Positions 39,498-41,130 of a DNA stretch of 64,000 nucleotides are shown piece by piece. A program made the translations under genes and the position numbers. The stretch spans positions 47,554,001 to 47,618,000 of the forward strand of contig OX597837.1 in assembly GCA_951406725.2 (NCBI GenBank), written 5' to 3'. A model generated the notes under the pieces. That model saw nothing but the letters and a program-made list of their open reading frames with translations. It searched no databases and was not told the origin of the DNA. Origin of the DNA: Octopus vulgaris (taxonomy: Eukaryota). Position 1 is the stretch's first letter. The number at the start of each line of letters is the position of its first letter.

Positions 39498-40008
39498 CAT
39501 ACATACATACATACATACATACATACATACATACATACATACATACATACATACATACACATATATATATACACACATATATATAACTTTACTCTCGAAA
39601 CGTGTATGTAGCTAATCTGAGTCGTGTGGGTTCGTTGTTTTTTTCCTTTTGCCAATGTAAAAAAGTGTGTTGTTCTACGGGAGATCCTTATTGTAGTAGA
39701 AAAGGCATTTTAACTCCTATTTCTAAATTCGGTGCGTGGCGAAGCAATTAGCTGCCCCCTGGTTATAATTATGTTTATAATTATAGAATATTATATATAT
39801 ATATATTATATATATATTACATTTTATAAAGGGCTTAGTAAAATAAATTACTTTGCCACATACTGAACTCATTAGAAATAGCAGCCCAAAAAAATTTTTT
39901 TAGCCATTTCCAATACTTAAAGAAAATTTCTCTCAGATAGTGTTTACTCAAAATAACCCACGAAGGTATGGGGGTAAAAACATTAAAAAATCACAAGTGC
40001 AAAGATTA

Positions 40009-40070
40009 TTTGAGAACGTACGTTTCTAGATCAGCCAAATACAATTCGACATTTCTTTCGTCAGCTCAAA
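40009..40070 (-). ncRNA. Type I hammerhead ribozyme, copy 1
   Basis: Minus strand TTTGAG-CTGACGA-aAGA..TCTa-GAAA-CGTACG-TT-CTCAAA. Confidence 0.8.
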
Positions 40071-40571
40071 ATTTCTTAATTCGGATTTGTAAACACTGAA
40101 AGTAGGAGCATACCCTTTTGGCGACTTTTCACCTCCGAAGATCCGCTCAAACTAACAGTGCCAACAAATTCAAAATATGCAAGCGAAGAATTTCTGCCCT
40201 CCCCCTTCCACCCACGTGGGCTAAACTAGCAAACACCATGTTTTATCGGTGAAAACCGAAGCATTAAACAGAGAGAAATGAATTATAATTTCAACAATTG
40301 AGGGTAAAATTAATTAATTATTAATCAATTTCACCAAGTATTCAGTATGTAAAGGGACCATTTAAGGCGAATTCAAAATATTACATTTTATAAAGGGCTT
40401 AGTAAAATAAATTACTTTGCCACATACTGAACTCATTAGAAATAGCAGCCAAAAAAAATTTTTTAGCCATTTCCAATACTTAAAGAAAATTTCTCTCAGA
40501 TAGTGTTTACTCAAAATAACCCACGAAGGTATGGGGGTAAAAACATTAAAAAATCACAAGTGCAAAGATTA

Positions 40572-40633
40572 TTTGAGAACGTACGTTTCTAGATCAGCCA
40601 AATACAATTCGACATTTCTTTCGTCAGCTCAAA
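40572..40633 (-). ncRNA. Type I hammerhead ribozyme, copy 2 (563 nt from copy 1)
   Basis: Same sequence as 40009-40070. Confidence 0.8.
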
Positions 40634-40733
40634 ATTTCTTAATTCGGATTTGTAAACACGGATCTTCGGAGGTGAAAAGTCGCCAAAAGGGTATGCTCCT
40701 ACTTTCAGTGTTTACAAATCCGAATTAAGAAAT

Positions 40734-40795
40734 TTTGAGCTGACGAAAGAAATATCGAATTGTATTTGGCTGATCTAGAAACGTACGTTCTCAAA
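40734..40795 (+). ncRNA. Type I hammerhead ribozyme, copy 3 (inverted arm)
   Basis: TTTGAG-CTGACGA-AAGAAATATCGAATTGTATTTGGCTGATCTA-GAAA-CGTACG-TT-CTCAAA. Confidence 0.8.
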
Positions 40796-41075
40796 TAATC
40801 TTTGCACTTGTGATTTTTTAATGTTTTTACCCCCATACCTTCGTGGGTTATTTTGAGTAAACACTATCTGAGAGAAATTTTCTTTAAGTATTGGAAATGG
40901 CTAAAAAAATTTTTTTTGCTGCTATTTCTAATGAGTTCAGTATGTGGCAAAGTAATTTATTTTACTAAGCCCTTTATAAAATGTAATATTTTGAATTCGC
41001 CTTAAATGGTCCCTTTACATACTGAATACTTGGTGAAATTGATTAATAATTAATTAATTTTACCCTCAATTGTTG

Positions 41076-41130
<55 letters not shown>

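Follow-up and report, generated by a model that had tools for sequence, protein, structure and literature searches.

A 563-nt hammerhead unit in a TA microsatellite of Octopus vulgaris, probably a retrozyme inserted by a Penelope-like protein

Animal non-LTR retrozymes are, by the account of Li, Clavereau & Pollet (2026, bioRxiv 10.64898/2026.07.22.740005), derived from the pLTRs of Penelope-like elements (PLEs). Expressed retrozymes are given as 170 to 400 nt in length (Cervera & de la Pena 2020, PMC7229834), and a unit range of 51 to 972 bp is reported in the preprint. As the sources used here present it, movement of retrozymes by PLE proteins has been proposed, not shown, and the roles of the PLE hammerhead and of circular templates are debated.

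Craig et al. (2021, PMC8557442) characterize insertions of endonuclease-bearing PLEs by a partial tandem, to whose 5' end an inverted copy, itself truncated at its 5' end, is attached; one end carries 30 to 40 nt of additional tail, and the targets are (TA)n. Among PLE inversions, the head-to-head orientation is reported to be the commonest, with 5' joins that use microhomology (Arkhipova et al. 2013, PMC3846280). On AT-rich DNA, the purified protein of PAc, a Poseidon PLE of Anolis, cleaves both strands and extends them, and its reverse transcription starts at two internal RNA sites downstream of the hammerhead ribozyme (HHR) (Frangieh et al. 2024, PMC11167929). In octopus, Hydra and Naiad PLEs that prefer (TA)n are on record, and a count for O. 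vulgaris gave 31 Penelope-like families with recent activity (PMC13282606); Naiads are described as long inactive in cephalopods (PMC8557442).

The window analyzed here is a 64-kb stretch of O. vulgaris DNA, which is AT-rich animal DNA, dense in microsatellites and containing remnants of several transposon types. At approximately 39788 to 41127 lies a young insertion of a 563-nt unit. The unit at this locus is not an autonomous PLE; it is probably an animal non-LTR retrozyme (a non-autonomous PLE derivative), inserted by a PLE protein that primed from both target strands. Each part of this reading is already known, and the inverted copy and TA target in a retrozyme are a modest new point. Among the papers of the literature library searched, none was found that reports a retrozyme in octopus.

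Layout of the insertion and its junctions

The features of the locus are collected in Table 1. The plus-strand order is (TA)n, an 846-nt arm with the HHR sense to the left, a 421-nt arm with the HHR sense to the right, and (AT)25. Alignments resolved a direct repeat (39814-40096 and 40378-40659) and the inverted arm (40659-41079). A preliminary description of this DNA had reported two identical minus-strand HHRs 563 nt apart, and their coordinates, identity, and spacing were all borne out by the alignments. The same holds for the flip at 40659, through 1-nt microhomology, into a 421-nt plus-sense copy with a third HHR.

Table 1. Coordinates of the features of the insertion in the 64-kb window
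Feature	Coordinates	Strand	Basis or remark
Left (TA)n target remnant, imperfect	39788..39817	.	ATAT overlap with element end
Sense arm, 846 nt = 1.5 units	39814..40659	-	alignments
Predicted 563-nt HHR-to-HHR monomer	40015..40577	-	fold and cut-site prediction
Type I HHR, downstream copy	40009..40070	-	predicted cut after 40015
Type I HHR, upstream copy, same as downstream copy	40572..40633	-	predicted cut after 40578
Head-to-head inversion junction	40659..40659	.	1-nt microhomology
Inverted-repeat spacer, 48 nt	40660..40707	+	monomer positions 434-481
Inverted arm, 421 nt, 5'-truncated	40659..41079	+	alignments
Third HHR	40734..40795	+	substitution weakens distal stem II
Right (AT)25 target remnant	41078..41127	.	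AT overlap with element end

Predicted cut sites lie at 40578 and 40015 on the minus strand and at 40789 on the plus strand, and the distance between the first two makes the monomer exactly 563 nt. In monomer numbering, the sense arm has its 3' end (39814) at position 200 and its 5' truncation (40659) at position 482, while the inverted arm is truncated at position 433 and has its 3' end (41079) at position 290, which is 90 nt beyond that of the left arm. Both outer ends are 3' ends in the HHR sense; the truncated 5' ends meet head to head at a base (40659, C) that is compatible with both arms. The outer ends had been described as unequal and as merging into (TA)n through AT microhomology, which agrees with positions 200 and 290 and with flank overlaps of ATAT at 39814 and AT at 41079. 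No target-site duplication is definable at the locus.

The stretch from 40708 to 41079 mirrors 40288 to 40659 over 372 bp with 3 mismatches, and the 48-nt spacer sequence occurs here only in the right arm and at 40097-40144. The reported near identity of the copies was likewise confirmed: near 39885, a C/A/T homopolymer run varies (copies 2 and 3 have 2 mismatches there), distal stem II of copy 3 has one substitution, and nothing else differs. One extra homopolymer base in copy 1 accounts for left repeat ends that are 564 apart.

A partial tandem, an inverted 5'-truncated copy joined head to head, unequal ends, and a (TA)n target together make up a standard PLE insertion, a layout that the preliminary description had overlooked. 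The locus shares with Hydra-clade PLEs, as presented by Craig et al. (PMC8557442), this layout, the unequal ends, and a (TA)n target without a readable target-site duplication, as well as a 3' HHR whose helix III is palindromic, whose stem II often starts with a mismatch, and whose site is GUU or GUA. It differs from them in that the unit has no RT/GIY-YIG frame and its ends lie 200 and 290 nt past the cut. The HHR of Hydra-1_Obim differs from that of the unit, and five short motifs of the unit were absent from the supplement of that paper. Two 10- to 11-nt matches, of 40100-40115 and 40180-40192, to the published Hydra-1_Obim 5' end were seen by eye; their order is swapped, and they could be due to chance. 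Several published Hydra-clade ends have, close to the HHR, a hairpin with a bulge. A preference for microsatellites also exists in Naiad elements and, as the paper states, in Neptune elements, so that the partner of the unit is not fixed to the Hydra clade.

Within 30-52 kb, 93 frames with a minimum length of 55 aa (of 247 such frames in the window) were screened, and none contained a PLE domain, which indicates that the protein came in trans. The preliminary description had set a retrozyme against a pLTR attached to a coding PLE. At the locus no frame with RT and GIY-YIG is attached to the unit. Retrozyme and pLTR are not an either-or choice, given the derivation of animal retrozymes from PLE pLTRs in the preprint.

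Several other elements were seen in the window. A broken LINE (811-6800, minus), with Pfam RVT_1 and zf-RVT matches in separate frames, is one that we take to be R4/Dong-like; a 31-bp and 22-bp tandem array lies inside it at 3165-3392. A frame of 362 aa bearing an RT (RVT_1; 7450-8538, plus) is presumably RTE-like. A Pif1 helicase 2B fragment (10704-11258, minus), probably a Helitron remnant, precedes a tandem of 4.1 copies of 166 bp (11472-12151). Tc1/mariner-like transposase remnants were located at 55389-56269 (minus) and 35804-36181 (plus), with a weak DDE_3 match for 55392-55883 and the other assignments made by eye, and a GC-richer minisatellite at 56328-56812 has a 21/41-bp period and a 207-bp higher-order period. 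A SINE-like family with a common 17-nt motif (8 matches versus 0.01 expected in the window), assumed by us to be an octopus SINE, has copies at 9040-9170, 42000-43340, 44460-44640, 53970-54385, and 63826-63994, some of them in tandem pairs.

The hammerhead motif and the predicted fold of the unit

Each HHR comprises a 6-bp stem I, a CUGACGA core, a 31-nt stem II region, GAAA, a palindromic 8-nt helix III, and a GUU site. The CUGANGA and GAAA core, the NUH site, and the closing stem I are those of a type I HHR; the base of stem II is A.A instead of the usual G10.1-C11.1 pair in all three copies. An HHR descriptor with a minimum of 5 Watson-Crick base pairs in stem I found 3 sites in the window, all copies of one motif, and none in any of 300 dinucleotide shuffles; the motifs are not chance. 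The Rfam hammerhead families gave no match at the gathering score and none among the 38 matches at E values up to 10, and the isolated 71-nt motif folded no better than shuffles (z −0.55). Low-E Rfam matches to microRNAs were caused by the palindrome itself and were discarded. Also discarded was an ATG inside stem II, reminiscent of the PAc start codon, which is followed by a stop after 8 codons.

The A.A at the base of stem II appears to be less damaging than it looks, given precedents elsewhere and the alleles of the family. Many HHRs in the table of Hydra-clade PLEs have a mismatch at this position (PMC8557442 supplement), an axolotl retrozyme HHR cleaves with U.U in this place (PMC7229834), and in the family an allele at 40027 closes stem II with A-U in 40, 83, 52, and 88% of summed depth in four runs.

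A double hammerhead was found in the predicted fold of 40650-40000, the stretch that the preliminary description had put forward for transcription, with a probability of 0.87 to 0.96 for the inter-copy helix III. The arrangement in which both sites are active lies 1.8 kcal/mol above the minimum free energy (MFE), and two separate monomer folds lie 13.9 kcal/mol above it. Tandem HHRs are thus predicted to pair as a double hammerhead, and an HHR by itself, within a monomer or circle, is predicted to be weak, a dimer-on, monomer-off design such as that described for metazoan type I HHRs (PMC4209133). In vitro, PLE-type HHRs are reported to cleave poorly, and one of nine predicted Xenopus retrozyme dimers cleaved (bioRxiv 10.64898/2026.07.22.740005); the PAc HHR cleaved only with protein, and the RNA-seq reported for it was without cut ends (PMC11167929).

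The unit between the cut sites is non-coding, with 34% GC and a longest stop-to-stop frame of 63 aa when circularized. The circularized unit in the HHR sense had an MFE of −165.4 kcal/mol (z −7.5 versus 40 shuffles) with 29 G.U pairs, compared to a z of −3.0 and 4 G.U pairs for the opposite strand; control folds of both strands of 12 window stretches ranged from +2.4 to −3.5 (12 shuffles each). This strand asymmetry points to a structure selected in RNA of the HHR sense. A single structure is predicted for the whole unit, and the HHR is where it brings the two monomer ends together. When 40 of the 87 variants were set against this fold, 13 kept it, 14 broke it, and 13 were unpaired (P about 0.1), and none fell in the 19 core positions (~1.4 expected). 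At the pairs 40350/40422 and 40108/40146, both sides vary towards a standard pair, the variants not being phased.

These folds bear on the reading that the locus arose by a DNA-level rearrangement of a satellite-like repeat, through replication fold-back or unequal crossover, with the HHR incidental or dead. The unit is AT-rich and internally palindromic, its variants show no clear respect for the fold, and local tandem amplification has been invoked for retrozymes in the preprint (bioRxiv 10.64898/2026.07.22.740005). Against it stand the strand-asymmetric fold rich in G.U pairs and the outer ends, each of which is a 3' end in the HHR sense and lies in TA; moreover, the insertion is isolated, alignment having found no further copy of the unit in the 64-kb window. 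We assign this reading a very slight probability.

The preliminary description had proposed that a leftward transcript of this locus would release a 563-nt monomer and serve as a source of circular RNA. The two identical HHRs at monomer spacing, and the double hammerhead predicted for the isolated sense arm, are what such a source would have. However, the upstream HHR has only 26 nt of sense sequence before it, and transcription would need to start within them; in a transcript that includes the spacer (75 nt), the monomer rod fold is preferred, and the double hammerhead lies 55 kcal/mol above the MFE. In a read-through transcript from the right, all 62 of the 62 nt of the upstream HHR are predicted to pair with the inverted arm, and the resulting 372-bp hairpin would bury one HHR, making monomer release from this copy unlikely. 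The plus strand offers a single HHR, without a partner. We therefore regard the locus as improbable as a circular RNA source. This copy is probably a product of the cycle and a dead end, and its expected read-through product is a long hairpin. What stands of the retrozyme-like cycle first proposed is the unit itself (non-coding, running from HHR to HHR, folded in the HHR sense, with a predicted double hammerhead) and the repeated copying of one template, with which rare alleles common to the copies agree.

The repeat family and what it says of the locus

The stretch was present in 20 of 24 listed runs (9 studies, 4 organism labels). The family is large, diverged, and multicopy: in four runs (three organism labels), 3275, 1357, 509, and 207 contigs aligned to the unit and, run by run, reached all 30 of its bins, at identities from below 90 to above 99%, where contig counts and summed depth are not equivalent to copy number. 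No RNA run is named among the listed holders of the stretch, and all four mapped runs consist of contigs. Compared to run X1 of the same organism label, run X15 had a flatter depth and a higher share of the stem-II-closing allele (88% versus 40%); as evidence of expression these differences were set aside, because the RNA label of X15 is a guess.

The three copies at the locus carry family-minority alleles at 40082 (C), 40198, and 40388 (T), which indicates a recent origin from a single template or a single homogeneous source. Variability within the unit is highest in the hairpin immediately upstream of the HHR (40097-40145), and loose ends there suggest subfamilies with a swapped arm. A metagenome scan with the specific HHR pattern gave 0 matches; the 8 matches to a relaxed pattern were GC-rich, prokaryote-like loci with a 14- to 15-nt motif alone in common and were attributed to chance.

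In the family, the unit mostly continues into itself and not into a gene, as indicated by three results taken together. Pooled over runs, 32 listed pieces of 5401 tile the whole unit with a smallest overlap of 22 nt, none of them spanning it; a listed piece at 40247-40335 (run X4, record 31) bridges the 40288 end with more than 31 letters on each side; and contigs running on into unlike sequence made up a share of 0 to 0.02 in the four runs. Joints that go back 560 reflect continuity across the arbitrary cut of the unit and by themselves are no proof of tandems.

This continuity bears on whether the locus is the terminal stump of an autonomous PLE, that is, tandem and inverted pLTRs whose frame was lost by 5' truncation and which had no independent RNA cycle. 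The layout is exactly that of PLE ends, the HHR is of PLE type (long stem II, palindromic helix III), and a few of the listed loose ends leave the unit upstream of the HHR and enter other sequence (X1 at 40122, 4 contigs; X3 at 40101, 3 contigs). Against a stump, the unit's own 3' part returns upstream of the HHR after 563 nt without a coding remnant, and the contigs, which are short, tile a full circle with few running on. The single predicted fold, closed at the HHR by the two monomer ends, also speaks against a stump. We consider a PLE stump unlikely.

One opposite-strand joint was found elsewhere in the unit (run X3), indicating that other copies invert too. The joint at 40659 was absent among the 4 joints listed. 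Its absence, the near-perfect 372-bp palindrome, and the reported trouble that PLE repeats cause in assemblies could suggest an assembly or library fold-back artefact. A joint from a single locus is, however, expected to be rare among thousands of contigs, and the right arm is more than a reflection of the left: it has 48 nt that do not adjoin the end of the left arm, it carries its own substitution, and its outer end is a family end within an (AT)25 of its own, not a mirror of the left flank. An artefact is scarcely credible.

The outer ends had been taken for permutation points. TA-like loose ends at 40291 and 40392-40394 (run X15) fall 3 and 14 to 16 nt from the locus ends, among the 24 loose ends listed of 286, and summed depth rises 13-, 16-, 33-, and 6-fold across 40270-40290 in the four runs and falls towards the 5' side. 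Together, the depth step and loose ends give a weak hint of a retroelement whose 3' end is fixed and whose copies are truncated at the 5' side, a pattern that a depth peak at 40157-40213 does not fit. The outer ends may accordingly be recurring family termini rather than random permutation points.

Insertion mechanism and significance

To judge from the DNA alone, the unit appears to work like an animal non-LTR retrozyme (PMC7229834; bioRxiv 10.64898/2026.07.22.740005), a class also defined by expression and circles, to which the unit is likened here on sequence criteria. It has in common with the published members a non-coding sequence of less than 50% GC, a head-to-tail unit with one type I HHR each, many copies, and, as predicted here, a self-paired monomer with the HHR free and a dimer-dependent HHR; its two consecutive HHRs give the "active" geometry of the preprint. 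In contrast to those members, its HHR is of the long-stem-II PLE type, not the canonical one, and it has an inverted copy and a (TA)n target, neither of which is mentioned in the main text of either retrozyme source. At 563 nt, it is longer than the expressed retrozymes, although within the range given in the preprint.

In the mechanism that we propose for this probable retrozyme, multimeric RNA would be made from other, intact head-to-tail copies. Two adjacent HHRs would pair via the palindromic helix III, as in the predicted fold, and cut out 563-nt monomers, which, by analogy with known retrozymes, have about an even chance of being ligated into circles. An RT/GIY-YIG protein of a (TA)n-targeting PLE would then nick both strands of the TA microsatellite; the geometry of two opposed arms is seen at the locus, and the enzyme is the presumed part. 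From each nick, 2 to 4 nt of AT pairing would prime reverse transcription at an internal site, 200 nt downstream of the cut in one case and 290 nt in the other, one cDNA extending for 1.5 units (round a circle or along a multimer) and the other for 0.75 unit. The truncated cDNA ends would finally be joined head to head, giving the junction observed.

The length of the arms constrains the template. Because they overlap by 372 nt, they are not two parts of one monomer, which rules out L1-style twin priming on one monomer; the template was a circle, a multimer of at least 2.6 units, or two RNAs. Twin priming on one linear multimer would need about 2.6 units with a 190- to 230-nt gap. Rolling-circle copying is possible and cannot be told here from copying along a linear multimer, and we place a circular template at roughly even chances.

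The two-site, two-strand activity of PAc would account for outward-facing 3' ends at different positions of the unit, and two primed arms with different 3' ends are the likeness to this Poseidon PLE. PAc differs in being autonomous, in having its start sites about 30 to 40 nt apart in an AC-rich stem-loop, and in using uncleaved RNA in vitro, with an HHR that needs protein (PMC11167929). The 90-nt offset between the ends of the locus exceeds the 30- to 40-nt PLE tail, which counts against the proposed mechanism.

A further reading goes beyond the locus and is tentative: the 563-nt family may be an abundant circular RNA parasite of (probably) cephalopods, copied from the circle by a TA-targeting PLE protein at two fixed internal sites, with both nicked strands priming. 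If this is true, the insertions would be the missing physical footprint of PLE proteins mobilizing retrozymes, the longer-than-unit arm would record rolling-circle reverse transcription, and each inverted insertion would give rise to long double-stranded RNA, with possible feedback on the family via silencing or editing. A young non-coding retrozyme copy with the marks of a PLE insertion and readable junctions makes the question of PLE mobilization testable.
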